DNA from: Flavobacteriaceae bacterium
GTDB lineage: Bacteria; Bacteroidota; Bacteroidia; Flavobacteriales; Flavobacteriaceae
Assembly (NCBI GenBank): GCA_965224465.1
Contig: OZ245049.1
Span: 4,830,001-4,862,000 of the forward strand
Direction: 5' to 3'
Length of the DNA stretch: 32,000 nucleotides
Made by a program: the position numbers and the translations under genes. The notes below the pieces were generated by a model that saw nothing but the letters and a program-made list of their open reading frames with translations, searched no databases and had not been told where the DNA came from. How positions within the stretch are numbered: the stretch's first letter is position 1; every line of letters begins with the position of its first letter. Below, in pieces: positions 2 to 17,560 of the stretch.

Positions 2-2218
2 CAGGAACTAGGAATACCTACGGGTGATTTATCTTGGAAAAAAGGACCTTGTCGTTTTTGTGGGGTAGGTTGTGGGATATTGGTAGGCGTAGAAAATGGA
101 AAAGCAGTGGCTGTAAAAGGGGATCCTAATTCTTCTGTAAATAAAGGGTTGCTTTGTGTAAAAGGATACCATCAAGCGATGTGCATTCAGGCAAAAGATA
201 GGTTGGAATATGCCTTAGTAAAAAAGAATGGTAAATATGTAAAAACTTCCTTAAGTGAAGCGTTAGATTTAGTGGCAAGTAAAATGAAATCTACCATTGA
301 AAAATATGGAAAAGATTCGGTAGCGATGTACACCTCTGGTCAGTCGACCATTCCAGAAGGGTATGTAGCTTCTAAATTGATGAAAGGTGCCATTGGAACC
401 AATAACTTAGATTGCAATGCACGTTTGTGTATGGCAAGTGCGGTGACAGGATTTCTAACTACTTTTGGAGCTGATGAGCCGATGGGTTGTTACGAAGATA
501 TAGATCATGCAGATTATTTTATTACATGGGGAAATAATATGGCAGAAATGCATCCCGTGTTGTTCTCTCGTATGTTAGAGCAAAAAAATAATAGAGGTGC
601 TAAAATTATAGATTTTGCTACCAGAACTACGCGTTCCAGTATGGCGTCTAATAAATCAATACTCTTTGAACCTCAGACGGATTTAGCAGTGGCAAATGCT
701 ATTTGTTATGAAATTATCAATAACGGATGGGTCAATAAAAAGTTTGTAGAAGATCATACAAATTTTCTAAAAGGAAAAACAAATATAGGCTACGGTTTAG
801 AAGATCATTTTAGCTTTAAAGACAAAGCAACTAAAATTAGTTTTGAGGATTATAAATTATTTTTAGAAGATTATACTCCAGAAATAGTTTCAAAATACTC
901 AAAAGTTTCCGTAAAAGATATTAAGTATTTAGCAACAATCTACGGAGATCCTAATAAGAAAGTTGTTTCCTACTGGTGTATGGGAATGAATCAACATACA
1001 CGTGGTACTTGGATAAATAATTTGGTGTACAATATTCATTTATTAACAGGGAAGATTTCACAACCGGGGAATGGCCCATTCTCTTTAACGGGACAACCAT
1101 CCGCCTGTGGAACGGCACGTGAAGTAGGAACATTCACTCATAAGTTACCAAAAGGAGTGGTAATGAAAGAAAAACACCGTCGTTTGGCAGCAAAAATTTG
1201 GAAAGTACCTTACGAAAACATTTCACCAAAACCTACGTACCATGCAACCGAGATGTTTAGAGCGGTAGATCGTGGAGATATCAAATTTATTTGGACTCAA
1301 GTTACAAATCCTTTAGTATCCTTACCAAAAACAAGTCGTTACCGACCTGCGATGGAAAAAGATTCTTGCTTTGTGGTAGTTTCGGATGTATTTCCAACTC
1401 CTACTACGGATGTTGCAGATGTAATTCTGCCAGCAAAATGGCATATAGAAAAAGGAGGATTGTTCGGGAATTCTGAGCGAAGAACGCAGTATTGGGAATC
1501 CATGGTGGAAGGTCCAGGAGAAACAGAAGCCGATGCTTGGATGACCATTGAAGTAGCCAGACGAATGGGCTACGGGCATTTATTTCCATACTCAAAAGAA
1601 AATCACGTAGAAGAAATATACAACGAATACCGTCAGTTTCATCAAGGGAAAAAACACGGAATGGCACCATTGGAAGTGTTGAAAAAAGAATCAGGTGTTA
1701 TTTGGCCTTATGTAGATGGTAAATCTACCCAGTGGAGGTTTAATGCAGCATACGATCCTGCATGTGATAATGGAAAAGATTTTCATTTCTATGGAAAACC
1801 AGATGGCAGAGCGGTGATTTGGCAACGTCCTTATGAGCCCGCTCCAGAAGTGCCGGATCAAGAATATCCTTTTTGGTTAAATACAGGGCGTGTAATTGAA
1901 CATTGGCATACAGGATCTATGACGCGTCGTATTCCTGTATTACACAAAGCAATGCCACATTCTTATGTGGAACTGCATCCCGATGATGCTAGGAAAATGG
2001 GAATTAGAAATGGAGAAAAAGTGAAAGTTGTTTCTCGCAGAGGTTCTTGTGTATTGCCAGCTTCTATCAACGAAAGAGGCTTGCCTACCATCGGACAAGT
2101 ATTTGTGCCCTTTTTTGATGAAAATATGCTGATTAACGATGTGACTTTGGATGCTTTTTGTCCAATTTCAAAAGAACCAGACTATAAAAAATGTGCAGTT
2201 AAAATAGAGAAAGTTTAA
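2..2218 (+). CDS. napA: Periplasmic nitrate reductase catalytic subunit NapA (Mo-bisPGD oxidoreductase); 5' end lies outside the window
   Basis: The frame is open from nt 2. Upstream of the tracked TTG the same frame reads QELGIPTGDLSWKKGPCRFCGVGCGILVGVENGK, which is the N-terminal CxxCxxxC 4Fe-4S motif of Nap/Fdh-type enzymes. It is followed by GDPNSSVNKGLLCVKGY. Length exceeds 710 aa and a NapB-like gene lies directly downstream. Confidence 0.9.
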   Translation, partial: QELGIPTGDLSWKKGPCRFCGVGCGILVGVENGKAVAVKGDPNSSVNKGLLCVKGYHQAMCIQAKDRLEYALVKKNGKYVKTSLSEALDLVASKMKSTIEKYGKDSVAMYTSGQSTIPEGYVASKLMKGAIGTNNLDCNARLCMASAVTGFLTTFGADEPMGCYEDIDHADYFITWGNNMAEMHPVLFSRMLEQKNNRGAKIIDFATRTTRSSMASNKSILFEPQTDLAVANAICYEIINNGWVNKKFVEDHTNFLKGKTNIGYGLEDHFSFKDKATKISFEDYKLFLEDYTPEIVSKYSKVSVKDIKYLATIYGDPNKKVVSYWCMGMNQHTRGTWINNLVYNIHLLTGKISQPGNGPFSLTGQPSACGTAREVGTFTHKLPKGVVMKEKHRRLAAKIWKVPYENISPKPTYHATEMFRAVDRGDIKFIWTQVTNPLVSLPKTSRYRPAMEKDSCFVVVSDVFPTPTTDVADVILPAKWHIEKGGLFGNSERRTQYWESMVEGPGETEADAWMTIEVARRMGYGHLFPYSKENHVEEIYNEYRQFHQGKKHGMAPLEVLKKESGVIWPYVDGKSTQWRFNAAYDPACDNGKDFHFYGKPDGRAVIWQRPYEPAPEVPDQEYPFWLNTGRVIEHWHTGSMTRRIPVLHKAMPHSYVELHPDDARKMGIRNGEKVKVVSRRGSCVLPASINERGLPTIGQVFVPFFDENMLINDVTLDAFCPISKEPDYKKCAVKIEKV

Positions 2219-2284
2219 ACAAAGTTATTGGTGCTAAATAAAAGTGGAATTAGTTTAGTAACCCTGATTTTAAAAAAAGAAAAG

Positions 2285-2956
2285 ATGAAGCGATTATTTT
2301 TTATTGGATTATTCACTTTGTTAGTGGTTGCTACCATTTTTGTATGGTCTAAAAGCTATTATACCTCACAAGAAGAGGCTTTTGTAGCGCTACCAATAGA
2401 AGTTGGAAAAGCAATATTAACAGAGGAACTAGGTGTGTTTCAACGATCTGAATTTGCCAATGATTACACAGAAATGAATGTGAATTTTAAAGGAGGAAGG
2501 TCCTTAAAAGAGTACTATAAAAATCGTGCCTTTCATGGTGCACCTCCTATCATTCCGCATCCAATTTCTAAAGATGGAATTATTGGAGATAAAGCCTGCT
2601 TAAAATGCCATGAGAACGGTGGTTATGTAAGTAAATTTAATGCCTTTGCTCCTGTAGTTCCTCACCCAGAAAAAGTAAACTGTAGACAGTGCCATGTCAC
2701 ACAAAATACCAATGGATTGTTTGTTGCCGAGAACGCACTTTTGTATACAAGACCTGCTGTTGGAAATGAGGCCTTTGTTGGAGGTCCTCCTATTATTCCT
2801 CACCAAATACAATTGCACGAAAATTGTTTGGCTTGCCATGCTGGACCAGCAGCTCCTAAGGAAATAAGAGTAAGTCATCCTGAACGATCTAATTGTCGCC
2901 AATGTCACGTGCTTAATAATAAATCAATGCCGGATATTGGTAGTTTTTCACGATAA
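2285..2956 (+). CDS. napB: NapB-like c-type cytochrome, tandem duplication (four CxxCH haem sites)
   Basis: Signal/TM segment after MKRLFFIGLF (internal ATG at 2285 preferred over the 2228 start). Two repeats of the NapB signature: PPIIPH followed by CLKCH...CRQCH, then PPIIPH followed by CLACH...CRQCH. Confidence 0.75.
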   Translation: MKRLFFIGLFTLLVVATIFVWSKSYYTSQEEAFVALPIEVGKAILTEELGVFQRSEFANDYTEMNVNFKGGRSLKEYYKNRAFHGAPPIIPHPISKDGIIGDKACLKCHENGGYVSKFNAFAPVVPHPEKVNCRQCHVTQNTNGLFVAENALLYTRPAVGNEAFVGGPPIIPHQIQLHENCLACHAGPAAPKEIRVSHPERSNCRQCHVLNNKSMPDIGSFSR

Positions 2957-2958
2957 AT

Positions 2959-3594
2959 ATGATACAAATGATACTAAATAATAGCGTAAAAATGTTGGGC
3001 ATTGTCCTTTGTATATCGATGTTTTCGTGCAAAGGAGATCCAGCACATACAACATACCATACTGTTCAAGATAAAATAGAGGCAGAAAGTGTTGCATATA
3101 AAGGTGATTTAAGTTCTGAAATTTACAATGAAACAATCAAAACTATTCTTGTGACAGAAGGTGAATTTGAGTTTTTAATTCCAGAAAGAAAGCATCAAAT
3201 TACTTCTTTTAATTGTACAGAGTGCCATAGCGAACCTTTGAATAGCTTGAAAGAAAAGCAAATAGGGAAAAAAGCCCATTGGAATATTAAATTGATACAT
3301 GCAGATTCCAAAACGATGAATTGTGCTACGTGCCATACAGGAAACGATATGGATAATTTGCACAGTTTAACCAACCAAAAAATAGATTTTAATTATAGCT
3401 ATAAATTGTGTAGTCAATGTCACCAACGCGAGTTTAAAGACTGGAAGGGTGGCGCACATGGAAAGCAATTGGGAGGCTGGGCGCCACCACGACTTTCCAA
3501 TACTTGTGTGAATTGTCACAATCCGCATATACCTGCCTTTGAGAAACGATGGCCTGTAAGATATAATACGCAAAAAGTTGCTGAAAGAAAGTAA
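2959..3594 (+). CDS. Tetra-haem cytochrome c (c3/NrfB-like), probable lipoprotein
   Basis: Four CxxCH motifs (CTECH, CATCH, CSQCH, CVNCH). N-terminal signal with a lipobox-like MFSC. Lies 2 nt after the napB-like stop. Confidence 0.7.
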   Translation: MIQMILNNSVKMLGIVLCISMFSCKGDPAHTTYHTVQDKIEAESVAYKGDLSSEIYNETIKTILVTEGEFEFLIPERKHQITSFNCTECHSEPLNSLKEKQIGKKAHWNIKLIHADSKTMNCATCHTGNDMDNLHSLTNQKIDFNYSYKLCSQCHQREFKDWKGGAHGKQLGGWAPPRLSNTCVNCHNPHIPAFEKRWPVRYNTQKVAERK

Positions 3595-3604
3595 AACAAT
3601 AACA

Positions 3605-4654
3605 ATGAGTGATACGAAAAAAAAATGGTTTTCGCTGAATTTGAATCGTAGTAAATCTAGCGCATCTTGTTCTTGTGAAAAAAACGAAACGAAAGAAAAC
3701 TGTAAGTCAAATGATGGATACAGCCAAGTACTGGATGTAGCGATGAGTAGACGGTCAGCATTTAAAAAATTGACCGCAGGTTTATTAATCGGTGCTGCTG
3801 CCGTGAGTTCGTCTTGTAGTGTGACTAAAAGTGATGAGGGAAAAGAAATGTCTCAGATAGAATGGGACGAATATTTTAAAGGGAATTATAAATTAATGAC
3901 CGATGAAGATAAAAAAAACACCGTCGAAAGGTTGACCCGTTCGTATGAACTGCGTACAGGTAAATACCTAGACTTGTCTTCTAAAGAAGCCAATGAGGAT
4001 GTTTTATTTGGCTATGCATTTAATATTTCCAAATGTCAGGGGTATATGGATTGTGTAAATGCGTGTGTAGAAGAAAATAATCAGGACCGCGCTAGTCAAA
4101 TGCAATATATCCGTATTCATGAAATGAAAGACGGTAAAGGATTTAATTTTGAAGAGGCAGATGATAATTACTATCACGAGGTGCCTGCCAAAGGTCATTT
4201 TTATTTGGGAACTCAATGTTTTCATTGTGACAATCCGCCATGTGTCGAAGTATGTCCCGTACAAGCCACTTGGAAGGAGAAAGATGGGATTGTAGTAATT
4301 GATTATGACTGGTGTGTAGGATGTAGATATTGCATGGCTGCTTGCCCGTATGATGGTCGTCGCTTTAATTGGAAAACACCACAAGTTCCAGAAGCTGAGG
4401 TGAACAAAAAACAACATTATTTAGGAAATAGATTGCGCAAAAAAGGGGTGATGGAAAAATGTACTTTCTGTATCCAACGGACTCGAGAAGGGCAAAATCC
4501 TGCATGTGTTGAAGCGTGTCCAACCGGGGCGAGAACTTTTGGAAACTTGCTAGATCCTAAGAGCAATATTCGATGGATTTTAGAACATAAAAAAGTGTTT
4601 AGGCTAAAAGAAGATTTGGGAACAGAACCTAAATTTTGGTATTATATGGATTGA
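3605..4654 (+). CDS. Tat-exported 4Fe-4S dicluster protein (NrfC/DmsB/PsrB-like electron-transfer subunit)
   Basis: Twin-arginine signal MSRRSAFKKLTAGLLIGAAAV; an alternative start at ATG 3743 would place it at the N-terminus. Several Cys clusters, for example CQGYMDCVNAC, CFHCDNPPCVEVCP, CVGCRYCMAACP and CTFCIQR...CVEACP. Confidence 0.8.
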   Translation: MSDTKKKWFSLNLNRSKSSASCSCEKNETKENCKSNDGYSQVLDVAMSRRSAFKKLTAGLLIGAAAVSSSCSVTKSDEGKEMSQIEWDEYFKGNYKLMTDEDKKNTVERLTRSYELRTGKYLDLSSKEANEDVLFGYAFNISKCQGYMDCVNACVEENNQDRASQMQYIRIHEMKDGKGFNFEEADDNYYHEVPAKGHFYLGTQCFHCDNPPCVEVCPVQATWKEKDGIVVIDYDWCVGCRYCMAACPYDGRRFNWKTPQVPEAEVNKKQHYLGNRLRKKGVMEKCTFCIQRTREGQNPACVEACPTGARTFGNLLDPKSNIRWILEHKKVFRLKEDLGTEPKFWYYMD

Positions 4655-4915
4655 TCGCTGTTAGGTTTTTTTCGATGCTCGTATTAAAAGGATCGCTTTT
4701 TTGTTTTAAACGGCTCTTATGTAGGGATCAAAGGAATGGAATAATTAGAAATAAAGACTGGTTTTTAAAACAGTTAAAATGAATAGTAATATTTGCGTGA
4801 AGGGATTGTAAGGTAGTCCAAAGAGTGTTGTTTGTAATCAAAAGCAAATGCGAACCGGAAACCATTTCCTTCTTTTTTTGATAGATAAAAAAGAACACGC
4901 CCAAATAAGTATAAA

Positions 4916-6136
4916 ATGAGAATATTAAAAGTTTTTGGTAGTTTAGTAAAAGACGGTTTTGTTGAGGTAACTCATGGAGATAGGAACTATCATATTTGGA
5001 TGGCAGTACTTACTTTTTTAATGCTTTTTGGAATGTATAATTACTCCATTCAGTTAGAAGAAGGATTAAGTGCTACAGGTATGACGGACAGAGTGAGCTG
5101 GGGCTTGTATATCTCTAATTTTACTTTTTTAGTAGGAGTGGCTGCTGCAGCTGTAATGTTGGTAATGCCTACATATGTACTAAAAGATGTAGATTTTAAA
5201 CAAGCTGTCTTAATAGGGGAGGGCTTGGCGGTAGCAGCTTTATGTATGTGTTTGGCCTTTGTAGTTGCCGACATGGGTGGACCTGCAAGATTGTGGCATA
5301 TGTTGCCAGGAATAGGCGTGTTTAATTTCCCGAATTCTATGTTGACATGGGATGTATTGGTGTTAAATGGTTATTTGTTAATTAATATTACGGTGCCATT
5401 GTACATATTGATAATGCGTTACCAAGGAAAAGTACCGAATCCAAAAGTGTATATCCCAGGGGTGTTTTTATCTGTATTTTGGGCTGTAGGAATTCACATG
5501 GTAACAGCGTTTTTATACCAAGGATTACAAGCCCGTCCATTTTGGAATAATGCCTTGTTAGGGCCTCGTTTTTTGGCTTCTGCTTTTGCAGCTGGTCCCG
5601 CATTAATTATTTTGGTATTGGCAATTATTAGAAAGTTTACCGATTTTAAAATAGAAGATAAAACGATAAAAAAAATCAGTTTAATTGTAACTGTTGCAGC
5701 TCAGATTAACTTAATAATGTTGGTGTCTGAATTGTTTAAAGAGTTTTATGCGCCTACACATCATAGTATTAGTGCTGTGTATTTGTTTTTTGGGATAGGT
5801 GATAAAACAGCTTTGTTGCCGTGGATATGGACTTCCATTAGTTTGAATGTAGTGGCTACTATTGCCTTGACATTTAATAAAATACGTACTAATTTTAAGT
5901 TGTTGTATGTTATCTGTGTAATGCTGTTTGTTGCTATTTGGATCGAAAAAGGTTTTGGCTTAATTGTACCTGGATTTATTCCTGGACCATGGGGTAAAAT
6001 AGCAGAATATACTCCTAGTATGGTGGAGATTTTTGTAACATTAGGAATTTGGGCTATGGGGGCTTTTATATTTACAGTATTGGCAAAAACAGGAATTGCT
6101 GTAGAATTAGATCGCTTAAAATATAAGGGGAAATAA
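4916..6136 (+). CDS. NrfD/PsrC-like polytopic membrane quinol-interacting subunit
   Basis: 406 aa, highly hydrophobic with about 8-10 predicted TM stretches. Sits after the FeS subunit, as in NrfCD/PsrBC/ActBC modules. Confidence 0.7.
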   Translation: MRILKVFGSLVKDGFVEVTHGDRNYHIWMAVLTFLMLFGMYNYSIQLEEGLSATGMTDRVSWGLYISNFTFLVGVAAAAVMLVMPTYVLKDVDFKQAVLIGEGLAVAALCMCLAFVVADMGGPARLWHMLPGIGVFNFPNSMLTWDVLVLNGYLLINITVPLYILIMRYQGKVPNPKVYIPGVFLSVFWAVGIHMVTAFLYQGLQARPFWNNALLGPRFLASAFAAGPALIILVLAIIRKFTDFKIEDKTIKKISLIVTVAAQINLIMLVSELFKEFYAPTHHSISAVYLFFGIGDKTALLPWIWTSISLNVVATIALTFNKIRTNFKLLYVICVMLFVAIWIEKGFGLIVPGFIPGPWGKIAEYTPSMVEIFVTLGIWAMGAFIFTVLAKTGIAVELDRLKYKGK

Positions 6137-6229
6137 GTGTTTTTTTAACTTTAAAAATAGACTTCAATAATATTTACATTCGTTATTTGTGTTGATTTAA
6201 AGATGCTTACGGAATGTGAGTGCTTTGAA

Positions 6230-6346
6230 TTGCTTGAAAATTTATAAAAGTTGAATACTTTTTTTAAAAAAACAACACATACCCCGAAACTATGATAGAC
6301 ATAACGGAAATAATGTCAAGTTTAGGGAGTTTATTGATGATATATG
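6230..6346 (+). repeat. Island repeat family A, copy 1 (contains the ACGGAAATAATGTCAAGTTT core)
   Basis: By eye it aligns along about 115 nt with 12690-12806 (ttgcttgaaaattta...gtcaagttt.g.gagtttattgatgatata). Its core is shared with 14500-14540 and 16513-16553. Confidence 0.8.
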
Positions 6347-6458
6347 GGGGTTGGGTTTCATTAGATAAGCTCATCTAAATTTTAATACATTTCAAAAGGA
6401 AATAGATAATAGCTGAAATTTTTCTAACACACCTTGATAGAAAATGGAGTTGAATTGC

Positions 6459-6466
6459 TACATTTG
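6459..6466 (+). promoter_or_regulatory. Possible Bacteroidota -7 promoter box (TACATTTG = TAnnTTTG) for the 6485-9314 operon
   Basis: Matches the TAnnTTTG consensus 19 nt upstream of ATG 6485. No clean -33 TTTG was seen. Confidence 0.25.
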
Positions 6467-6484
6467 TGAAAATCATATAGAAAA

Positions 6485-7360
6485 ATGACATTAAAAGAAA
6501 GAAATATCAATAATAAAATGAGAAGTTATTCTTCGATATTTTCTAGCACTTCTTTTTCTAAATTATTAAAAGAAGATGATTTTTCATTTATTAACTCTAA
6601 AATATCCCGTTATGATATCCCCAAAATAGGTGTGAAAATTCATACTTACACAGATTATATCAAATACACATATAATGAATTAAGGAAACAATACCGTAAT
6701 GAATATATTTATAAAAACACATTTATTAACGAAATATTAATCAATGATTATGGTGTAAAAGATACTATTGTTATCAATGAATTTCGTGTAGGTAATTCTA
6801 TTGCAGACCTTGTTATGTTTAATGGAACAAGTAAAGCCTTTGAAATTAAAACTGAACTCGACACAGATAAACGCCTAAGTGGTCAGTTACTAGATTATAA
6901 AAAAGCATTTAAAGAATGTTATATTGTTACTCACGAATCGCTTACTGCTAAATATTTAAAAGAAGATAACTCTATCGGTATTATTGAATTAATTGAAACC
7001 CCAAGAGGATTGAAAATGCAAGAAGTAAGACCCGCAATAGAGAATGAAGAAGTGGATTCTGAAACGATAATGCGTTGCCTTAGAACCAACGAGTACAAAA
7101 GTATTGTAAAGAAACACTACAATGAATTACCTGAAATGACTAGTTTTAATATGTTTAATATTTGTAAAGAATTATTGTTTCAAATTCCTAATGACATTCT
7201 CAATCTATTATTTATTGGGCAGTTAAAATTAAGAAAATCCAATACATCTAAAATAAATACACACCTTAAAGAATTGAGACAAATAGGTATTGCTTTAAAT
7301 TTAGATGCTAAACTATCTGGGCAATTAATTAATAAACTCAATACAACTATTAAATTATAA
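6485..7360 (+). CDS. sce7726-family-like protein with a PD-(D/E)xK nuclease-type motif
   Basis: YRNEYIYKNTFINEIL...INEFRVGNSIADLVMFNGTSKAFEIKTELD gives an E...D...ExK arrangement. The overall pattern matches my recollection of the sce7726 family, which normally pairs with sce7725. The next ORF begins 4 nt later. Confidence 0.65.
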   Translation: MTLKERNINNKMRSYSSIFSSTSFSKLLKEDDFSFINSKISRYDIPKIGVKIHTYTDYIKYTYNELRKQYRNEYIYKNTFINEILINDYGVKDTIVINEFRVGNSIADLVMFNGTSKAFEIKTELDTDKRLSGQLLDYKKAFKECYIVTHESLTAKYLKEDNSIGIIELIETPRGLKMQEVRPAIENEEVDSETIMRCLRTNEYKSIVKKHYNELPEMTSFNMFNICKELLFQIPNDILNLLFIGQLKLRKSNTSKINTHLKELRQIGIALNLDAKLSGQLINKLNTTIKL

Positions 7361-7364
7361 TATT

Positions 7365-8285
7365 ATGTATTATCCATATCTTAGAGGACGACAATTTGAG
7401 TTAATTGCTTTACGAGAGTACGCTTTAATCAGAGGTGAAAATAATAATGTTATACCTATAATAGAGCCTGTTAAAAAAACGTTTAACAGTTTAAAATTGG
7501 CTATTCCCAAATTTATAGAAGGGAATATGAGATTTGCATTGATACTAAACCCGCAGGTTGGAGAAATTAAAAATTTTAAAACTATTGTTACTGAATTACA
7601 AGAGCAATTAGCAGATAAATCTAAATGGATTCCTGCATTTATTGTTACAACCAATATTGATTTAATAAATAAAGAAATTGAGAGCAATAATTATACTGAA
7701 GTTATGATTATTTGTTCGGATAGAGCTGATACAACGAGTGCTGGTTTTTTAGAATTTATATCTGATAAAAGAATAAAATATGTTGTTTCTAAAGAGAACA
7801 GAACTTTAAAAAGAAAATTAAAAGGAAAAGATGTTATTAGGCTAGATGATAGTTTTAACTCACAAAAAAGGAATAAAGATTTTTTATCCATAAGTGAAGA
7901 AAAGTTTACGGAAGAGCATTTGTTTTATAAAGATGATAATTATGCGGGTTTTTCGGACTATACTGCTCTTATCAGTGATTTTATAGAGGGAGGTGGAGCA
8001 CCATATGCTGTTGCCATTCACTTGACCTATCAAAAGGATAGTGAAGATATTTGGATTCGTCATTTTACATCTATTAGCAATGATGATATTGCAAATATTC
8101 AAGGAAAGTTTGCAGAGGCTGTAAGAAAAGCAGTTAATTTTATTGATACAGAGTCATTAGATACGGAAGCAACAAAAGAATTGAAAAATTATTATGTTGA
8201 AGAGAAGTATCCTGGGCTTGGAATGGTAAAAAAAATTTCAATTAAAAACCACTTAGAATTAATCAACAAAGTAATTTCAAAATAG
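7365..8285 (+). CDS. sce7725 / Beta-protein family member (phage P4 beta-like)
   Basis: The N-terminus MYYPYLRGRQFELIALRE...VIPIIEPV is the characteristic start of the Pfam Beta_protein / sce7725 family. Tightly spaced between both neighbours. Confidence 0.65.
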   Translation: MYYPYLRGRQFELIALREYALIRGENNNVIPIIEPVKKTFNSLKLAIPKFIEGNMRFALILNPQVGEIKNFKTIVTELQEQLADKSKWIPAFIVTTNIDLINKEIESNNYTEVMIICSDRADTTSAGFLEFISDKRIKYVVSKENRTLKRKLKGKDVIRLDDSFNSQKRNKDFLSISEEKFTEEHLFYKDDNYAGFSDYTALISDFIEGGGAPYAVAIHLTYQKDSEDIWIRHFTSISNDDIANIQGKFAEAVRKAVNFIDTESLDTEATKELKNYYVEEKYPGLGMVKKISIKNHLELINKVISK

Positions 8286-8288
8286 TAT

Positions 8289-9314
8289 ATGAAAGTTTGT
8301 AAAGAATGTTTCAACGATATTGAAATTAGAAGTTTTATAGAGTTCAATTCATTAGACAAAGGAAAATGTGATTATTGTAGCAATGGCATTCATTCAGAAT
8401 TAATTGAAGTAGGAGAATTGTTAGATTTCTTCGCAGAATTTGTTGATGTTTTTGAAGAAGATCCTGATGGAAATGAAACATTAACTGAGCTTATTCAAAA
8501 AGATTGGAATTTATTTGCAGGAGAAAGTGAAGCACATGATGTTTTATCTGATATTCTATTAGCATTAGGTACTCCAATTACTTCTCCTTCTGACATTGTG
8601 AGTTATGCTACTGGAATTAATGATTGTATTTCATATTGGGATACACTAAAGGAAGAGTTGAAGTGGCGGAAAAGGTTTTTAACAAATACAGAAGAACTTG
8701 AAAACTTAGGATGGGATAGCCTTTTCAGTATTGAAAATATTTTACCTGCTAATACAACTCTTTACAGAGCAAGAGTACATCATGCAGAGCGTAAAGAACC
8801 TTACGCTACAAATGAAATGGGTTACCCTGAAAAAGAAAAAGTATCAGAAGGCAGAGCAAATCCACAAGGTATACCATACTTATATCTGAGTAAAGCTCTT
8901 AAAACTACATTGTATGAAACGCGTGTATCTTACCTTGATGAATTAAGTATTGGAGAGTTTAAGATTAAAGAGGGTGAAAATATTATTTTGGTTGATTTTA
9001 CTGAAAAATTAAATGCTTTTAAAAATATTGATAATATTAAAAATCATACAAAAGGAGTGTTACTAAAAAACAGGATAAGTAAATCACTTTCTAAGCCAAT
9101 TCGCAGGTATGATTCAAGGTTAGAATATATTCCAACCCAATTTATTTGTGAATACATTAGGTATATTACAAATGCTGATGGTATTTTATTTAATAGTTCC
9201 TTAGATTTAGTTGGAGGAGTAAATGTTGTATTATTTGAACAACATAAAGTTAAATGTGATAGCGTTGAAATGTATCGGATAAAAGATATTGACATTACAC
9301 CTGAGAAAATTTAA
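8289..9314 (+). CDS. Zn-ribbon N-terminal domain fused to a RES domain (putative NAD+-targeting effector)
   Basis: N-terminus CKECF...(18)...CDYCS, a four-Cys ribbon. RES triad in the expected order and context: TLYRARVH (R), GRANPQGIPYLYLS...TLYETRV (E), ILFNSSLD (S). Confidence 0.7.
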   Translation: MKVCKECFNDIEIRSFIEFNSLDKGKCDYCSNGIHSELIEVGELLDFFAEFVDVFEEDPDGNETLTELIQKDWNLFAGESEAHDVLSDILLALGTPITSPSDIVSYATGINDCISYWDTLKEELKWRKRFLTNTEELENLGWDSLFSIENILPANTTLYRARVHHAERKEPYATNEMGYPEKEKVSEGRANPQGIPYLYLSKALKTTLYETRVSYLDELSIGEFKIKEGENIILVDFTEKLNAFKNIDNIKNHTKGVLLKNRISKSLSKPIRRYDSRLEYIPTQFICEYIRYITNADGILFNSSLDLVGGVNVVLFEQHKVKCDSVEMYRIKDIDITPEKI

Positions 9315-9498: not shown

Positions 9499-10697
9499 CA
9501 ATAACTAATTGTTCCTACGGTGTAGCGTCCAGTATGAACATTCTGTTGGCTATACCGGCTCAAAAGATGATACTATGGGGATTGCGTGTTTTAATTAAGA
9601 GGCTATCGATAGTAAATGCGGAAGTGTCTTTATATTCAAACCATCTTCTAATGCATGAGACGCAAAGCAATGTCGTAGGGCATGCATTGTTATAGGCTTA
9701 TCAATACCACTTTTTTTATGTGCTTGCACAAAAGCATGAGGCACACCTCCAGAACTCATAGGCTCGCCTTTAAACCTTCCATTAAAAAGATGTATTTTAG
9801 GTTTACACATTTCAAAATACCTGCGTAGCTCCTCTAAAATTGTATTATATAAAATGGTGTACCGGTCTTTCGATCCTTTTCCCCTTATTAATTCAGACAC
9901 GCATTTTTCCATCCTTTGTTTCAATGTCATGTATTTTTAAATGTACTAGTTCAGGTCTTCGGAGCCAATCGAATACAACTAGCGAAACATGACTTTGTGC
10001 TTATGATTAATACAGCTTTCAAACAATAATTGTAACTCCTCCCGACTAATAATTAAAGGTAAACTTGGCTTTTCTTTGGGATAGGGAGTTTTCTGTGTTA
10101 AGGATACATTTTCTAGTGTTTCCTGAAAGTAGTATCGCAATCCTGTGTTTATATTAACCCAAAAGTATACCGCTATTTCAGTGGAAAAGTATACCAGTAA
10201 ATTTTTAAAAAAAACTAAAAAATCAATCATCTGATCTAGCTCCAATTCCTTGGGGTCTTTATCGTGAAAATCATACAATTTGACTAGCCCACGGACATAG
10301 TTCCGTATGGTTCGATCGGATTTATTAGCAACGATCATCCGATTTTCATAAATACGAACCAAGTTTGCTAATTCTTTTTTTACTACCTTTACTTCTGTTG
10401 TACTAAGGCTTTTTTCTTCTGTGTTTTTCATGTTATTCTGATTTTAAATGAATAACACAGAAGTTAAGGGGGCGCAACGTAAGCTACACCTGAGGTGTTT
10501 AGTGCAACAAAGTGTAAAAATAATAAGGGTTAAGTGCGAAGCCAGAAGTTGGTGTGTATTAATAAAGTCCACCAAATTTATATTTTAACGGTATAAAGAA
10601 AATAAAGGTAAAAATTGTAAATTTGGATAAGTGCTAAACTCGAAAAGTAAGTGCATTTTAATTCCTTATTATTCTTATATAAACCGTTGTAGCCAAT
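9499..10697 (-). mobile_element. Putative recombinase-bearing parent copy of the inverted-repeat-bounded island element (decayed)
   Basis: The left arm 9499-9609 (caataactaattgttcctacggtgtagcg...ggctatcga) matches the left arms at 13803 and 17568. The right end, cgttgtagccaat at 10685-10697, matches 14086-14098 and 17858-17870. The interior carries the integrase pseudogene. Confidence 0.4.
9595..10431 (-). pseudogene. Tyrosine recombinase/integrase pseudogene (three in-frame stops, 3' truncation)
   Basis: ORFs 9979-10431 (SAM-like N-domain, TIRNYVRGLVKLYDFH) and 9595-9930 (GKGSKDRYT, HALRHCFASHALEDG) are in the same frame. The 9931-9978 linker reads *LYSIGSEDLN*YI*KY. The ORF stops at LLSIAS before the expected LLGH...Y catalytic-Tyr segment. 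Confidence 0.8.
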
Positions 10698-10720
10698 TCC
10701 TACTTTTAAAGAAAAAAAAT

Positions 10721-12145
10721 ATGAAACTAAAAATTACTTTTTTATGTCTTTTAGCACTAATTCATGTTAGTTGTCAAAATAAAATTTCAGGAACTTCAGA
10801 AGAAGATTTTAAATCATCTCGAATAGAAGTGATAAAAGACTTAACATCTGAAGAACAAGAAAAGTTAGAAAAAGCATTTAGGATTGTTGCCTTATATGCA
10901 ATGGAAGAGAAATGGAATAATTCTGACAACTATATTGACAAATCTATAAACGAAATCACACTAGATATTGTAAACAATAAAACGTACAATGGCCTTGTTG
11001 ATTTTGCGGAAAATTTTCTAAAACTAGAAAATAAAGAAAAAATAAAAAAAATTGAAATGAAAATTTCAGATATAGGATTAAATAGAAAAAAGACTGATTC
11101 TATTATTAGAATACTAGAAGCTTTTAAACCTACAGGAATCAAAATCTATAAAGGAAGTTGGGATGAACCTACTGTTAGTGTTAAAATACTTAATAAAGGT
11201 AACTTAACCGAAATAACTGAATATATGTTTAATTTATGTATATACTCCATTTCTCAAAATAAAGTGATTGATGTTGTGGTGTCTGGTGGTGGTTCTGAAA
11301 AAGGAAGGTCAAAGGGAGAAGGCGATTTTTTTGCTTATGTGTCAAGGTCCTTATCTCCAATAATTGCAAAAAGTAAACGCTTAGAAAAGCAACTGAAAAA
11401 CCCTGAATATCCTATTACCAATTTACAAGAATATGACTTACGTGTAGAGGTCAGACCAAGTAAAATAGTTCTTAAAGACGGAACTAGATATGATTATCCA
11501 AAAAAGATTTTAGCTGATTATGATGCTGAAATTAAAATTTTACAAGAGCAATTAAAACAATTAAAATCTTTAGATGTGAGACTAGACGAATTATCACTTA
11601 AAGAATCAGATTCAGAAAATGAAACCGCTTATAATGAAGAGTTCTTACCATTATTAGAAAAAATAAGAAAGGTTAAAAATAATTCTGATGAAAGAGTATT
11701 AAAAATACATAAAAATCTAGCCTTCACTTTCCCCTCTAAATATGAAATTAAAAAAGAAAAAAATGGGGGAATATATATCTTTTCATTAAGTGATAGTCTA
11801 AGTTATGATATTAGTGATAAAAATCTTATTCAATATCAAATAAGAGATACTGCATATATAGAATATGAAGACAAGTATGATAAAGAGCATGGTGTACTAA
11901 ATATCTTAAAAAAAGAAAACGTATCCTACGATATTAAAGAAACTATTAACAGTTTGAAAATTGCAGGTGGCCATTATAAGTTAATTGATGCTGATGATTC
12001 AGGGTATATATACTTCCGTAGTGATTCTTACAAACTTTTACGTTATTTTAAAATAAAAGGTACTCATTATTCGTATTCTATGGATTTCAATAATTTAAAG
12101 GAATGTATCCGAGAATTTGACCGTTCAAAAGGAATGATAAAGTAA
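10721..12145 (+). CDS. Hypothetical lipoprotein with a coiled-coil-rich central region
   Basis: The internal ATG at 10721 gives MKLKITFLCLLALIHVSC (lipobox Cys). The ORF is long and uninterrupted in AT-rich DNA. No family recognised. Confidence 0.6.
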   Translation: MKLKITFLCLLALIHVSCQNKISGTSEEDFKSSRIEVIKDLTSEEQEKLEKAFRIVALYAMEEKWNNSDNYIDKSINEITLDIVNNKTYNGLVDFAENFLKLENKEKIKKIEMKISDIGLNRKKTDSIIRILEAFKPTGIKIYKGSWDEPTVSVKILNKGNLTEITEYMFNLCIYSISQNKVIDVVVSGGGSEKGRSKGEGDFFAYVSRSLSPIIAKSKRLEKQLKNPEYPITNLQEYDLRVEVRPSKIVLKDGTRYDYPKKILADYDAEIKILQEQLKQLKSLDVRLDELSLKESDSENETAYNEEFLPLLEKIRKVKNNSDERVLKIHKNLAFTFPSKYEIKKEKNGGIYIFSLSDSLSYDISDKNLIQYQIRDTAYIEYEDKYDKEHGVLNILKKENVSYDIKETINSLKIAGGHYKLIDADDSGYIYFRSDSYKLLRYFKIKGTHYSYSMDFNNLKECIREFDRSKGMIK

Positions 12146-12201: not shown

Positions 12202-12526
12202 TTGTCTATATTGTTAATAACTCTGAGAAGAAAAAAGACGGATAATTTTGTTGATTTATACACCGATTATTTGATAAGTTCAAGTTCTTATACTACAGCA
12301 ACAGGAATGTCTCACTTGCTTTGCGTAAAACATGATAAAATAACAAGAGCATTGTCAACAGGTGTTTACGACAGTAAATTTCTACAGAAAACGGTAAAGC
12401 CTTATATTGAAGAATTGACTCAAGCAAAAAAAAACATTATTTTAAGTTTTGATGATTCTATACAAGAAAAACAAGATGCAAAAGAAAGTGAACTTAACAC
12501 TTGGTATTTTGACCACGTGTTTGGGA
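12202..12526 (+). pseudogene. N-terminal fragment of a DDE transposase (IS4/IS701-like)
   Basis: FVDLYTDYLISSSSYTTATGMSHLL...HDKITRALS resembles the conserved N-terminus of Bacteroidota IS701/IS4-type transposases, from memory. It has a TTG start, covers only about 108 codons and then runs into repeat sequence at about 12521. Confidence 0.4.
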
Positions 12527-12625
12527 TACTGATAAGTATTGGTCAGCAGCGTTTGGTATGCGTTTTCCATTAGTGTCTACATTTATTTTTTTGCTTATTA
12601 GCACCTACTTTTATTTAGGCGATGC
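12521..12625 (+). repeat. Right-arm segment of the island element (gatactgataagtattggtcagcagcgtttgg...)
   Basis: Aligns with 14010-14085 and 17760-17855. Diverges before the terminal gttgtagccaat. Confidence 0.65.
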
Positions 12626-12689
12626 TTCTCCAAAAATCACAGAGATTTACACCAAGACCATCGAAATGAATAATGAAAAAATTGTTGGA

Positions 12690-12806
12690 TTGCTTGAAAA
12701 TTTAAAAAATTTGAATACATTTAACAAAAAACATCACATAATCTGAAACTATTATAGATATAACGTCAAGTTTTGTGAGTTTATTGATGATATACGTGTG
12801 TTGTAA
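12690..12806 (+). repeat. Island repeat family A, copy 2
   Basis: Aligns with 6230-6346. Relative to copy 1 it lacks the 9-nt ggaaataat. Ends in gtgttgtaaaac. Confidence 0.8.
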
Positions 12807-13087: not shown

Positions 13088-13807
13088 ATGAGCGAAAATA
13101 TATACTACATAATAGGAGGAATTGCAGTCGTTTTTACAATTTATATAATCTTTGTGGGCACTTATGCAAGTAAAAGAAAGAAAAAACAACTAGAGAAATT
13201 CACCAGCCTTAAACCCTTAAATAGAAACGAAAAAAACACTTTAGTCTTTGGTGCAATCCTTTCTTATCATAGAGGTGAAGATATATTAGAAATAAAGCCA
13301 AAGGATTCAATTGATTTATACAAAAACGGACTTAGAGATTCTTGGGAAATAACAAGTAAAGAAGAAGCACTTGAAACAATTAATAATTTAATTTTTTTAG
13401 AAAGAAGCAAAGAATTTGATGCCTTTTTAGAACAGCCTTCTTCCGACTTAACTAAAGTGCAAAAGAATATAGCAAAAGGTTTAAAATTAGAACTAGAAGA
13501 AATACAAAAAGTAAAATCAACTTTTGCTTGGGATACTTGTAGATCTGTATCGTTAACAAAATGGTGCTTTTGGTGTGGCTATTTATCAGAACAAGAATGT
13601 TGGGAACTTATAAACAATGCCGTAAAAGTTGCTCAAAGTTTAGGTTCAAATTGGGAAAACTATACAATCTCTTTTTTACTAGGAAGAACAATGCAAGGTT
13701 TTGATTTAGAAGACATAATAATAGAATCCGAACAACTTTTAAGTGGGGTAACTTTACTTGGGAAAAAAGAAATCCTAAGTGTTTATTCAAAATTTCCTTA
13801 CAAATAA
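13088..13807 (+). CDS. DUF1266-like protein with an N-terminal TM anchor
   Basis: FAWDTCRSVSLTKWCFWCGYLSEQECWELINNAVKVAQS...FLLGR matches the AWD..R......GY.sE.E.W signature I associate with DUF1266. N-terminal TM segment YYIIGGIAVVFTIYIIFVG. Confidence 0.6.
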   Translation: MSENIYYIIGGIAVVFTIYIIFVGTYASKRKKKQLEKFTSLKPLNRNEKNTLVFGAILSYHRGEDILEIKPKDSIDLYKNGLRDSWEITSKEEALETINNLIFLERSKEFDAFLEQPSSDLTKVQKNIAKGLKLELEEIQKVKSTFAWDTCRSVSLTKWCFWCGYLSEQECWELINNAVKVAQSLGSNWENYTISFLLGRTMQGFDLEDIIIESEQLLSGVTLLGKKEILSVYSKFPYK

Positions 13808-14110
13808 CTAGGTGTTCCTACGGTGCGTAGCGCCCAGCATGAATATAATGTTGACTATACCGGCTCAAAAGATGATACTATGGGGATTGCGTTATTTAAT
13901 TATGAGGCTATCGACAAAGATCTTTATAGATAGCACCTATTTTTAGGTCATTTGCTCTCATGCTCTTTTGTGGGGATAGATTTTCACTATTTTAAGATAC
14001 GGATTATTGTTGGTCAGCAGCGTTTGGTAAGCGTTTCCCATTACGTTGGCATGTTTTTTTTTGCTTATTAGTAGCTCCTTTTATGCGTTGTAGCCAATAG
14101 GCAGGAGGTC
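13803..14110 (+). repeat. Island element, short (MITE-like) copy
   Basis: About 300 nt, collinear with 17561-17883. The left arm overlaps the TAA stop of the DUF1266 gene. The right end is gcgttgtagccaataggcaggaggtc. Confidence 0.8.
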
Positions 14111-14235: not shown

Positions 14236-14540
14236 AAACACCTGAAAAACGACTAAATACGCCTAAATATTCTCTGTGAAAACAACGTAATTATCTACTA
14301 TTAAAATACCACGTTTAGGATAAGAACAAGTATTCTTGTTGATATTCTGAAAAATAGAGATTAATGTATGAAAACTTTTACGAAAAATAATTAAAAGGTT
14401 AGTGTGCAAAAAGAATGTCTTTTGTATATTTGAAGGACGCTGTATACCGTATATAGCGGAATTAAAAATAAATATAATTACACCGCTATTGTTGCTGTCA
14501 CGGAAATAACGTCAAGTTTTGGCTTGTTATTGTGGATATA
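14236..14540 (+). repeat. 305-bp direct repeat B, copy 1 (ends with the family-A core)
   Basis: Near-identical by eye to 16249-16553, with scattered substitutions. Contains a TATATTTG box and hairpin-forming segments. Confidence 0.9.
14425..14432 (+). promoter_or_regulatory. TAnnTTTG -7-like box (TATATTTG) inside repeat B; conserved copy at 16447-16454
   Basis: Exact consensus match conserved in both repeat copies, followed by conserved hairpins. The distance to ATG 14702 is about 270 nt. Confidence 0.3.
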
Positions 14541-14701
14541 TCTGTTATTTGGTTCTTTTCTAGTACTATAGTGCTTCCTAGAAATAGATTTTTATAGATT
14601 TGAGCAATATGAGTAACAAAATCGAAGCACTGACACCCAACATTAGTTAAAATCAATACTACCCTTCGGTCGTACTGCTATTAGCCCTATTCTAAAAAAA
14701 A

Positions 14702-15859
14702 ATGCCATCAACAATAACAAAGTATAAGATTTTTTTAGCTTCACCAAGTGACCTTCAGGATGATAGAGCTTCTATTGACGAAGTTATAAATGAGTTAAAT
14801 TTCACATTTGGAAAGCAACACGATATTCATTTGGAACTATTAAAATGGGAAACACATTCAGCACCAGCAATTGCAATTAATCATCCTCAAGAAATTATAA
14901 ACTCTGATTTAGGAGACGACTATGATTTATTTATTGGACTTATCTGGAAAAAATTTGGAACACCAACAAAAGAAGCTGATTCTGGAACAGAGGAAGAATT
15001 TTTGAATGCATATAATCGATTTTTAGAAAATCCTAATTCACTACAGATTCTCTTTTATTTTAATAGTAAACCAGTATCTATAAGTGAGATGAATGCTGAA
15101 CAATTATTAAAAATTCAAAATTTCAAATCGGATATAGGGAAAAATAAAAAAGTTTTATATTGGGAGTATCAAGATACACAGCAATTAAATAAGTTTTTGA
15201 GAATACATATTCCTCAAAGAATATTAGAATTAAAAAAAAGTGCACAAAATAAGTTAGCTATTATAGAAAAAGATGAAGTTTTAGCAGTTGAGATATTAAG
15301 TGAAGAGTTTGGACTAATTGATTATCAAGAAATGATAGAAGATGGTTTTCGAGAATCTACAGAATCTTTGTTAAGAATTTCAAATGCTACCGAATGGATT
15401 GGCGAACAGCTGAATAAAAAAACAGCCGAGGCAAATACTATGACAGCTAATGGTAATCAACCCAGTCTCAAAACATTAAAAAATTATTTTATTAGAACTG
15501 CCAAAATAATGGATAATTATGCTAATCGTATTGAACCTGAAATTCCAATATTTCAAGAATATTTTGAAAAAGGAATAGACGCATTATCTAATGTAATTAA
15601 TATTTCAACAAACGACTTAGGTGTCGAACAGGATGAAATTGATGAAACTAAAGAATCCTTAGCAAGCCTTATCGAAGGAATATCATTTGGAATAGATAGT
15701 ATGAACAGTTTTTTACAATCGGTAAATGATCTACCAAGGATGTCTAAAGAATTAAATAAAGCTAAAACTAACGTTGGAACAAAATTAGAAGATTTATTAG
15801 ATAATTTAAGGATTAGCTTATCAATAGGAATTGAGTTAAAAAAGAGCCTTGAGGAATAA
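14702..15859 (+). CDS. DUF4062/TIR-like N-terminal domain protein with a helical C-terminal region
   Basis: The N-terminus YKIFLASPSDLQDDRASIDEVINEL ... DLFIGLIWKKFGTP...SGTEEEF matches the (V/I)F(I/L)SS..DL..ER ... G.....SGTE.E pattern recalled for DUF4062-type TIR-like domains. The C-terminal ~200 aa are rich in helix formers. Confidence 0.5.
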   Translation: MPSTITKYKIFLASPSDLQDDRASIDEVINELNFTFGKQHDIHLELLKWETHSAPAIAINHPQEIINSDLGDDYDLFIGLIWKKFGTPTKEADSGTEEEFLNAYNRFLENPNSLQILFYFNSKPVSISEMNAEQLLKIQNFKSDIGKNKKVLYWEYQDTQQLNKFLRIHIPQRILELKKSAQNKLAIIEKDEVLAVEILSEEFGLIDYQEMIEDGFRESTESLLRISNATEWIGEQLNKKTAEANTMTANGNQPSLKTLKNYFIRTAKIMDNYANRIEPEIPIFQEYFEKGIDALSNVINISTNDLGVEQDEIDETKESLASLIEGISFGIDSMNSFLQSVNDLPRMSKELNKAKTNVGTKLEDLLDNLRISLSIGIELKKSLEE

Positions 15860-16248: not shown

Positions 16249-16553
16249 AAACACCTGAAAATTACTAAATACGCCTAAATATTCTCTGTGAAAACAACGT
16301 AATTACCTAATATTAAAATACCTCGTTTAGTATAAAAATAGGTACTCTTGTTGATATTATGAAAAACAGAGATTAATGGTTGAAAACTTTTACGAAAAAC
16401 AATTAAAAGGTTAGTGTGCGAAAAGGATGTCTTTTGTATATTTGAAGGACGCTGTATACTGTATATAGCGGATTTTTTAAATAAATATAATTACACCGCT
16501 ATTGTAGCTATTACGGAAATAACGTCAAGTTTTGGCTTGTTATTGTGAATATA
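16249..16553 (+). repeat. 305-bp direct repeat B, copy 2
   Basis: See 14236-14540. Here it points into the 3' end of the convergent antitoxin gene. Confidence 0.9.
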
Positions 16554-16598
16554 GAGGTGTTGTACCCCGTTGGAATAGAGATGGTGAAATGGCGATTT

Positions 16599-17096
16599 CT
16601 ATATTCCTAATTCCATTATTTTCTTCGAAAGTTCTTCTTTTTTACGATTGTCTATAGAATCACACACTCGAATATAATAAGATAAAATATCTTTATTATT
16701 AATACTCATCTTGATTAATCTTCCACTAGTCAGAGATGTTACTCCATCATTTTCAATATTAGAGATTGTATTTTTACTAAAACCTAATATGACACTTAAT
16801 GTTGATGCAGCAATATGATATTTTTCCCTAAAACTAATAATTTCATTTGGAGCAGCAGCCCCTTTGGCTATAAGATAAGAACTCTTTAGTTTTTTCATAT
16901 TACGACTAACTTGACCCTTAGTGTAATACTCAACTTTACTTTGTCTATTGATCATACCAGTATCTTCATCAACATCATAGTCTAAATAATACACTTCCTT
17001 ATATGTTAACTTAATACCTTTGAACGTTTTTTCTACAGTTCGTTGTAATTCATCGGTAGGTTTATTCTCTCTTGTTAATATTTTTTTTGTTTCCAT
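16599..17096 (-). CDS. XRE-type HTH protein, MqsA-like antitoxin candidate
   Basis: C-terminal HTH REKYHIAASTLSVILGFSKNTISNIENDG. Located 4 nt downstream of the toxin-like ORF, in toxin-first order as in mqsRA. Confidence 0.55.
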   Translation of the reverse strand: METKKILTRENKPTDELQRTVEKTFKGIKLTYKEVYYLDYDVDEDTGMINRQSKVEYYTKGQVSRNMKKLKSSYLIAKGAAAPNEIISFREKYHIAASTLSVILGFSKNTISNIENDGVTSLTSGRLIKMSINNKDILSYYIRVCDSIDNRKKEELSKKIMELGI

Positions 17097-17100
17097 AATT

Positions 17101-17481: not shown

Positions 17482-17560
17482 AGATGTAATTATATAGCTT
17501 ATGCAAATATACATAAAACACCTACTAATTCCCAATAATTGGGTAAGAAATACAATAGCT

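Follow-up and report, generated by a model that had tools for sequence, protein, structure and literature searches.

What is a nuclease-like gene, followed within a few nucleotides by a relative of a phage P4 gene and by a gene for a predicted NAD+-degrading enzyme, doing in a flavobacterial genome? The question is raised by positions 6485-9314 of a 32,000-nucleotide (nt) stretch of a Flavobacteriaceae bacterium (assembly GCA_965224465.1, contig OZ245049.1, positions 4,830,001 to 4,862,000; hereafter, the window). A sce7726 gene, a sce7725 gene and a RES-domain gene follow each other there (hereafter, genes 1, 2 and 3, together the triad). A reading of the sequence alone (hereafter, the original prediction) had proposed a defence or abortive-infection system. 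Our analysis indicates that the locus is probably a self-contained mobile abortive-infection anti-phage module, in which a RES NAD+ phosphorylase is controlled by a beta/cII-like pair. The triad is most likely a variant joining two known defence systems, gop-beta-cII and aRES, and not a categorically new kind, the effector class having been characterised in 2026.

All three open reading frames (ORFs) are intact and lie on the + strand, at 6485-7360 (291 amino acids, aa), 7365-8285 (306 aa) and 8289-9314 (341 aa). The gaps of 4 nt (genes 1/2) and 3 nt (genes 2/3) and the motifs quoted in the original prediction are all present in the sequence, and no further small ORF was found inside the operon. 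The GC content is 0.27-0.31 across the triad, versus 0.35-0.38 in the flanking upstream oxidoreductase operon. The triad thus lies in a low-GC island, as had been described, but it is not the only AT-rich peak, the region at 11-12.5 kb of the window being equally AT-rich.

To describe the linkage of the three genes, we used two peptide patterns, which recovered at least 341 confirmed relatives (a lower bound) among 185,579 species genomes, and analysed the best 80 of the 341 loci (36-81% identity). These 80 loci span at least five phyla, including Bacteroidota, Bacillota, Actinomycetota, Pseudomonadota and Cloacimonadota; relatives with 81-92% identity are Flavobacteriales/Polaribacter-like. 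The co-occurrence of the three families that had been expected was borne out, with all three genes in the same order and on the same strand at 69 of the 80 genome loci, one gene being split or truncated in three of these triads (L043, L047 and L077). In four of the remaining 11, the contig includes genes 2 and 3 but ends before gene 1, another four are truncated by a contig end, and one is degenerate; L025 and L079 are the only genome loci with room for gene 3 yet without it. A metagenome scan seeded on divergent members returned 80 loci, and 63 of the 64 evaluable ones were triads. On plasmids, a RES gene lies directly downstream in 13 of the 15 records with a sce7725 match, and the triad was found at 23 of 32 loci on viral or prophage contigs. 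Such recurrence of all three genes, in an unchanged order, is far beyond chance.

The spacing is likewise tight, with overlaps or gaps below 30 nt in nearly all 69 triads, and the three proteins co-diverge (pairwise-identity matrices, r = 0.95-0.97; Mantel 0/999). No recurrent fourth gene was found among the 84 nearest neighbours, which include integrases (4), ResIII (3), GmrSD (2), type I restriction-modification (R-M) subunits, HNH genes and transposases, and also alanyl-tRNA synthetase and CTP synthase genes. The plasmid triads are annotated in RefSeq as sce7726, sce7725 and 'RES family NAD+ phosphorylase', the last also being the NCBI name of gene 3 homologues. As a system, the triad was not found in the searchable literature, which held passing annotations only; RES, sce7725 and sce7726 genes are, for example, listed without comment on an integrative mobilizable element of P. 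aeruginosa (PMC9394441).

Gene 3 (8289-9314, +) encodes the predicted effector, a 341-aa protein with a zinc ribbon, a HEPN/RES-NTD1-like region and a RES domain, identified with Pfam RES and hhalign. It matches Pfam RES (PF08808) with 55.1 bits (E 1.2e-14), above the gathering threshold of 23.2 bits. The RES domain covers aa 158-320 (8760-9248, +) with R160/R162, R189 (in a GRANP motif), Y199, E210, Y280, Q284 and S303, and these residues are invariant across triad and stand-alone forms. The four ribbon cysteines, C4, C7, C27 and C30 (8298-8378, +), are invariant in the family alignment and 94-99% conserved in 86 sequences; the range is 94-100% when the RES residues are included. The HEPN/RES-NTD1-like region (aa 23-134; 8355-8690, +) is assigned by homology, with a sub-threshold match of gene 3 itself to PF18870, and seven close homologues of gene 3 carry a precomputed PF18870 match. 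The gene 3 family profile had no significant match among Protein Data Bank (PDB) sequences, nor was there a significant sequence match of gene 3 to solved RES toxins; a RES-only profile reached ParT (6d0i) alone, at GRxN...E and with a non-significant E of 2.2.

The relationship of gene 3 to stand-alone proteins is best seen in a Bacillus tropicus plasmid protein, which is flanked by genes on the opposite strand and matches both NTD1 (3.1e-8, 34.5 bits) and RES (2.2e-16). Against the gene 3 family it aligned over residues 1-321, the CxxC...CxxC ribbon included, with a probability of 99.85% (hhalign, E 8e-31). Given this full-length homology to an NTD1-RES protein, gene 3 very probably has the architecture that defines aRES. 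The four-cysteine ribbon fused to a RES domain (with R189, E210 and S303 conserved) stood as originally described, but the ribbon is not unique to the operon, since it also occurs in stand-alone relatives. Fusions of NTD1 to RES, 'some with a further N-terminal Zn ribbon', had been listed in 2013 by Anantharaman et al. (PMC3710099).

The aRES proteins of Osterman et al. combine an N-terminal domain (NTD, PF18870) with RES in 300-600 aa, protect E. coli and cause growth arrest (10.64898/2026.01.28.702374). They convert NAD+ to nicotinamide and ADP-ribose (ADPR)-1''-phosphate, are described as stand-alone, and the tested proteins came from E. coli, Klebsiella and Enterobacter (10.64898/2026.01.28.702374). 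Gene 3 resembles them in its probable NTD and RES architecture, its length of 341 aa, its invariant RES residues and its full-length homology (E 8e-31). It differs in being strictly operonic, 3 nt after gene 2 and with two conserved partners, and is in that respect no stand-alone gene; the tested aRES proteins also fall outside the gene 3 clade, and PF18870 is sub-threshold in gene 3 by hmmscan. The original prediction had considered the whole architecture uncharacterised, which holds for the triad as a system but not for the effector type, as NTD1 plus RES is aRES, described in a preprint of January 2026.

The aRES catalogue was built from domain content only, with a detection rule of hhsearch probability >80% (10.64898/2026.01.28.702374). 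It lists three strains that bear the triad, Humibacter albus DSM 18994 (L053), Flavobacterium xinjiangense CGMCC 1.2749 (L008) and Rhizobium phaseoli R723 (L211), and it is probable that the entries of these strains are the gene 3 of their triads. Their presence suggests that the partner genes were probably overlooked and that operonic genes are probably mixed with stand-alone ones in the catalogue. In a large clade that crosses phyla and has probably already been counted there, aRES-like enzymes are locked into an operon with Beta/cII relatives, an unrecognised and very common operonic form. Where catalogues are based on domain content, stand-alone and operonic genes with perhaps very different regulation can be lumped together, and tools that annotate defence systems should include a separate rule to detect the three-gene module.

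Gene 1 (6485-7360, +; 291 aa) is a sce7726 / P4 cII-like protein. It matches NCBIfam sce7726 (NF033832) with 170.5 bits (E 3.5e-50, aa 71-251), above the curated cutoff of 70 bits, and the PADLOC model cll (PDLC02989), the cII component of gop-beta-cII, with E 1.1e-20. Gene 1 and P4 cII share phrog_984, align by BLASTP (7e-14) and are linked by hhalign profile comparison with 96.7% probability; P4 cII is itself named 'sce7726 family protein' in RefSeq. All gene 1 homologues have the precomputed Pfam accession PF26915.1, so a newer Pfam family for sce7726-like proteins appears to exist.

The AlphaFold2 (AF2) model of gene 1 (predicted local distance difference test score, pLDDT, 82.7) has a helical N-terminus, a central PD-(D/E)xK-like core and a helical C-terminus. 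The predicted nuclease-like core (aa 95-182; 6767-7030, +), placed from secondary structure and Foldseek, holds E99, D108, E120-x-K122 and D126. It is laid out as three strands, a helix, a strand, a helix and then two strands, with strand 2 carrying D108 and strand 3 carrying E120-x-K122 in the model, so that the D...(D/E)xK motif falls on consecutive strands, as in the alpha-beta-beta-beta-alpha-beta core of PD-(D/E)xK nucleases. The five residues are 98-100% conserved (D108, E120 and K122, 99-100%) in 100 diverse relatives, P4-type cII proteins and RES-less loci included. The top Foldseek match in the PDB was 3dnx (E 1.3e-3, probability 1.0, template modelling (TM) score 0.28/0.50), followed by weaker matches (E>0.1) to SfsA, McrC, Cas4 and NucS, all five of which we take to be PD-(D/E)xK folds; the family profile had no significant match among PDB sequences. 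Because the E-D-ExK site is invariant and the fold is predicted, gene 1 likely encodes a catalytically competent nuclease-like protein, the fold evidence being moderate, and its original assignment as a sce7726 protein with a PD-(D/E)xK-type motif agrees with these results.

Gene 2 (7365-8285, +) encodes a 306-aa sce7725 protein that begins MYYPYLRGRQFELIALRE...IPIIEPV and was assigned with NCBIfam NF033831, phrog_34524, AF2, Foldseek and hhalign. The match to NF033831 reaches 304.3 bits (E 1.3e-90, aa 2-303; curated cutoff, 60 bits). The original prediction had named sce7725 and Beta_protein in one breath. The former assignment held, but gene 2 has no Pfam match, Beta_protein (PF14350, gathering threshold 27 bits) being absent at E<=0.1, and it is linked to Beta through remote homology only. 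P4 beta itself matches Beta_protein with 191 bits (4e-56) and falls into a different PHROG (phrog_9159). No PADLOC model matched gene 2 at E<=0.1, the beta component of gop-beta-cII included, pairwise BLASTP of gene 2 against P4 beta gave nothing, and single-sequence hhalign recovered the N-terminal motif only, with a probability of 4.9%.

The remote link emerged when profiles were compared. A profile of 79-102 diverse sce7725 proteins matched that of a six-member Beta_protein set with E 1.1e-5 to 1.3e-5 and a probability of 81-82% over 256-269 columns (score 46.6-47.0), and the controls (ten column-shuffled, one reversed and four unrelated families) had scores of 12-24, with alignments no longer than 36 columns. 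Every Beta_protein gene in P4 and in five plasmid loci has a convergent sce7726 gene as its partner. The profile match and this pairing indicate that sce7725 is a remote relative of Beta outside the Pfam family. At the level of sequence profiles, gene 2 is distantly related to P4 Beta over its full length, a superfamily relationship and no Pfam membership.

The AF2 model of gene 2 is confident (pLDDT 84.6, predicted TM score 0.86) and has a predicted TIM-barrel-like alpha/beta fold, and Foldseek returned TIM-barrel enzymes only (GH84, FabK, class II aldolases and TrpA), with modest TM scores of ~0.4. The family profile had no significant match among PDB sequences. Some 20 polar positions, including R7, E12, E34, N62, D198, H219, H233, K248, K289 and H296, show at least 96% conservation in 102 sequences; judged from the predicted secondary structure, they seem to lie mostly at the C-terminal strand ends, where the active site of a TIM barrel is located. 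The top viral structural match (BFVD) was A0A5J6TRS2, an uncharacterised 379-aa protein from the Gordonia phage Powerball (E 4.7e-8, TM score 0.66). Its candidacy as a Beta_protein relative was dropped, as no tie was found and tblastn with P4 beta or gene 2 missed that phage.

These assignments bear on the function of the pair. gop-beta-cII, which DefenseFinder and PADLOC list as 'gop_beta_cll', protects E. coli against lambda and P1, in line with the original prediction, which had called it an anti-phage locus; Gop is toxic without Beta, and the two were first read as a toxin-antitoxin (TA)-like pair (PMC9122126). Cell death by gop-beta-cII is triggered by the phage accessory gene orf184 (10.1101/2023.04.06.535777). 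Since P4 cII is a sce7726 protein, the sce7726/sce7725 pair has its counterparts in two of this validated system's three genes (PMC9122126), and the earlier statement that the pair had no assigned function was not upheld. The triad resembles gop-beta-cII in the cII family membership of gene 1, the remote full-length relationship of gene 2 to Beta, the three genes on mobile elements, and the pairing of a beta-like with a sce7726 gene in both branches. It differs in having no gop homologue, the place of Gop (133 aa) being taken by a RES enzyme of 341 aa, and in the failure of gene 2 to match Pfam Beta_protein or any PADLOC model. The gene order also differs: gop and beta are followed by a convergent cII in P4 and the five plasmid loci, whereas the triad runs co-directionally from the cII-like through the beta-like gene to the effector. 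A relationship of Gop to RES or gene 3 was rejected on comparison. The enigmatic Beta/cII proteins, in a system validated since 2022, thereby gain a tractable context. The hypotheses raised are that the pair is a control or sensing layer for RES, that Beta neutralises different effectors and that the conserved nuclease-fold protein helps in triggering.

We propose the following mechanism. Once activated, gene 3 would phosphorolyse NAD+ to nicotinamide and ADPR-1''-phosphate, and the growth of the infected cell would be arrested; this role is proposed because of the homology to the aRES architecture and the intact catalytic residues. Gene 2 would hold the effector inactive in the absence of infection, much as Beta restrains toxic Gop, and such restraint is suggested by analogy. 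Gene 1 may sense or cut invading nucleic acid, and would then provide the trigger or serve as a second effector, as its predicted fold and invariant site suggest. The defence and NAD+-depletion logic put forward in the original prediction thus finds support in homologues, and the activity of gene 3 is extrapolated from them. The predicted outcome, infection-triggered NAD+ destruction followed by growth arrest, is also that of NAD+-depleting SIR2/TIR defence (DSR, Thoeris); the catalytic fold there is unrelated and the product is ADPR, versus ADPR-1''-phosphate.

The third gene is not always RES. Pair-only sce7726-sce7725 loci without RES were found at L094, L095, L110, L116, L126 (viral contigs), L197 and L025; several lie in prophages beside a cI-like repressor (helix-turn-helix (HTH) plus Peptidase_S24), as at L094 and L095, or beside an integrase. 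At one RES-less pair in a prophage (L097/L098; IMGVR_UViG_2870098142_000001, 5323-6939), a 538-aa SIR2_2 protein (8e-24) is encoded 113 nt upstream on the same strand and may be an alternative NADase effector. SIR2 as a recurrent alternative was rejected: the linkage was seen once (L097), and the metagenome scan seeded on that branch gave 63 RES triads and no more SIR2 loci among 80. On Enterococcus faecium plasmid p114-2 (L087, 3306-5513), a GNAT acetyltransferase gene follows sce7725 in the RES position, and the 229-aa protein encoded before sce7725 has no match to the sce7726 profile. Where the beta gene belongs to Beta_protein, the gop position is occupied by Gop or by unrelated proteins of 160-350 aa without a family match; those on the plasmids were considered as RES-like and discarded, having no Pfam matches. 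With the third gene varying in this way, the sce7726/sce7725 pair appears as the conserved core, and RES as by far its commonest partner in the sce7725 branch.

Three further loci were noted in passing. A RES-less pair is followed by other defence-like genes in two cases, by DUF6119 and an AAA_21 ATPase at L079 (2767-6096) and by a 492-aa P-loop ATPase and a 280-aa protein at L112/L113 (7009-9322). On a Neorhizobium plasmid (L082, 1435-2682), a reverse transcriptase (RVT_1, 2.2e-11) is encoded two genes upstream of a Beta_protein/sce7726 locus.

Several observations weigh against the triad being a single abortive-infection module with a controlled RES effector. Gene 3 reaches only 18.5 bits (E 0.0027) against Pfam HEPN_RES_NTD1 (PF18870), under its 27.4-bit cutoff. 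The analogy to Gop and Beta depends on a remote relationship and involves an effector, Gop (133 aa), that is unrelated to RES. The defence-island signal is only moderate, as housekeeping genes make up many of the neighbours. The aRES proteins that were tested act without partners, which are therefore not needed for RES activity as such; the pair, for its part, is able to persist where RES is absent and may on its own constitute a complete system. Each half can thus exist alone, which weakens any strict mutual need but leaves the fixed order and spacing of the genes and their co-divergence unexplained. Some RES toxins, such as ParT, ADP-ribosylate a protein instead of depleting NAD+.

The toxicity of RES domains offers another explanation, to which we give a small share of the probability: the triad may be an addiction (TA-like) module that stabilises its carrier plasmid, integrative element or prophage, with RES as the toxin and sce7725, with or without sce7726, as the antidote, and with no dedicated anti-phage role. 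RES domains are the classic toxins of RES-Xre TA pairs, gop/beta was at first taken for such a pair, and the triad is common on plasmids, in prophages and on an integrative mobilizable element, and is beside a recombinase here. It shares with RES-Xre TA systems of the PrsT/MbcT/ParT/NatT type the RES catalytic domain and, in characterised members, NAD+-directed toxicity. It has, however, three genes instead of two, and gene 3 carries an N-terminal zinc ribbon and NTD1 extension of ~150 aa. No Xre/DUF2384-type antitoxin lies next to gene 3, genes 1 and 2 have no match to an HTH or antitoxin domain, and what follows downstream is a recombinase remnant. Many copies are chromosomal and adjacent to housekeeping genes, and homologues of both halves have measured anti-phage activity. 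The two roles are not mutually exclusive.

The variable third gene allows a broader reading, of equally low probability in our view. The sce7726/sce7725 pair would be a portable sensor-regulator chassis for interchangeable effectors, mostly RES and also membrane-type Gop, 340-350-aa proteins, possibly SIR2/GNAT, or none, with the sce7725 barrel acting enzymatically, by producing or breaking down an effector-gating small molecule that is perhaps derived from NAD, and not as a simple binding antitoxin. If true, gop-beta-cII and a large share of aRES would turn out to have a single control mechanism that had gone unrecognised.

It is slightly less likely still that two independent systems share one transcript, a complete nuclease-based sce7726/sce7725 pair and an autonomous aRES. 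Single-handed action of the tested aRES proteins, the existence of pair-only loci and the 14 of 27 full-length gene 3-like plasmid proteins without sce7725 nearby would fit this. Order, strand and overlap-level spacing are nevertheless fixed across phyla, unlike those of random defence-island neighbours; all three genes co-diverge, and a damaged gene 3 goes with decay of the whole locus (L047, L077 and L040). The least probable alternative, which we consider improbable, keeps the architecture and changes the chemistry, the RES domain ADP-ribosylating a macromolecular target like ParT (phosphoribosyl-pyrophosphate synthetase) with no bulk NAD+ phosphorolysis: RES does belong to the ADP-ribosyltransferase superfamily and ParT is the only solved structure that its profile touches, but gene 3 is a full-length homologue of the NTD1-RES architecture shown for aRES to yield ADPR-1''-phosphate and deplete NAD+, and NCBI names its homologues accordingly.

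For the reading that we favour, a mobile abortive-infection module with a RES NAD+ phosphorylase under the control of the beta/cII-like pair, the genomic context also speaks. In the window, the triad is accompanied by the remains of a recombinase, by fragments of transposases and by a DUF4062 gene; elsewhere its neighbours include integrases, R-M, GmrSD and transposases, and it also occurs on plasmids, on the P. aeruginosa integrative mobilizable element and in prophages. The low-GC island spans ~6.2-17.9 kb, between an upstream operon of molybdopterin oxidoreductase, cytochrome c, 4Fe-4S and NrfD genes (80-6136) and the housekeeping genes that resume at 18.2 kb. Its order is the triad, a split tyrosine recombinase, a 504-aa protein, a DDE transposase fragment, DUF1266, DUF4062 and an HTH-containing gene pair; no tRNA gene was found in the window. 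The tyrosine recombinase, directly 3' of the triad (9595-10431, -), consists of two ORFs, with Phage_integrase (2e-14) on the catalytic part (9595-9930) and Phage_int_SAM_4 (8.5e-5) on the SAM-like N-terminal part (9979-10431), and is probably a pseudogene.

Two repeat elements, both confined to the island, were found by a repeat search and a blastn self-search. The first, of 60-130 nt, has four copies (6225-6355, 12685-12805, 14466-14551 and 16479-16564), and the copy at 6225-6355 fills much of the 348-nt intergenic region 5' of gene 1. The second, of ~111 nt, has three copies that are 88-96% identical (9499-9609, downstream of the triad, 13802-13914 and 17566-17678), two of which extend to ~310 nt with a 28-nt internal palindrome. 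In addition, the 306-nt segment 14246-14551 is duplicated at 16258-16564. The repeats had no match in 209 other fetched loci and belong to no Rfam family; their interpretation as recombinase remnants was rejected from the blastn self-search. The cargo genes of the island lie between repeats in the manner of cassettes, near the broken recombinase, and the triad, placed between one copy of each element, looks like one cassette of a repeat-bounded array, which may be integron-like or dif-module-like, or a MITE (miniature inverted-repeat transposable element) family.

Regulatory signals were sought between 6000 and 9700. The sigma-70 promoter scan was uninformative (29 sites versus 22.7 +/- 4.9 in shuffles), and the intrinsic terminator scan gave 1 versus 1.1 in shuffles. 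Read by eye, TACATTTG at 6459-6466 (+), 18 nt 5' of the gene 1 ATG, is a candidate Bacteroidota-type -7 box; the label presumes TAnnTTTG as the Bacteroidota -7 consensus.

Further along the island, a 504-aa ORF without a Pfam match (10631-12145, +) is followed by a DDE_5 transposase fragment (12202-12573, +). A 385-aa protein (14702-15859, +) has an N-terminal DUF4062 domain (PF13271, 8.8e-7). DUF4062 has been renamed 'NIR', a NADase domain of bacterial immunity, according to a September 2026 preprint, and the gene would be a second candidate NAD+-targeting defence gene of the island. Two adjoining genes on the minus strand (16599-17535), one with a weak HTH_3 match and the other without a match, have island repeats on both sides and are possibly another cassette. 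Outside the island, an intact insertion sequence with a DDE_Tnp_1 transposase occupies 27903-29471.

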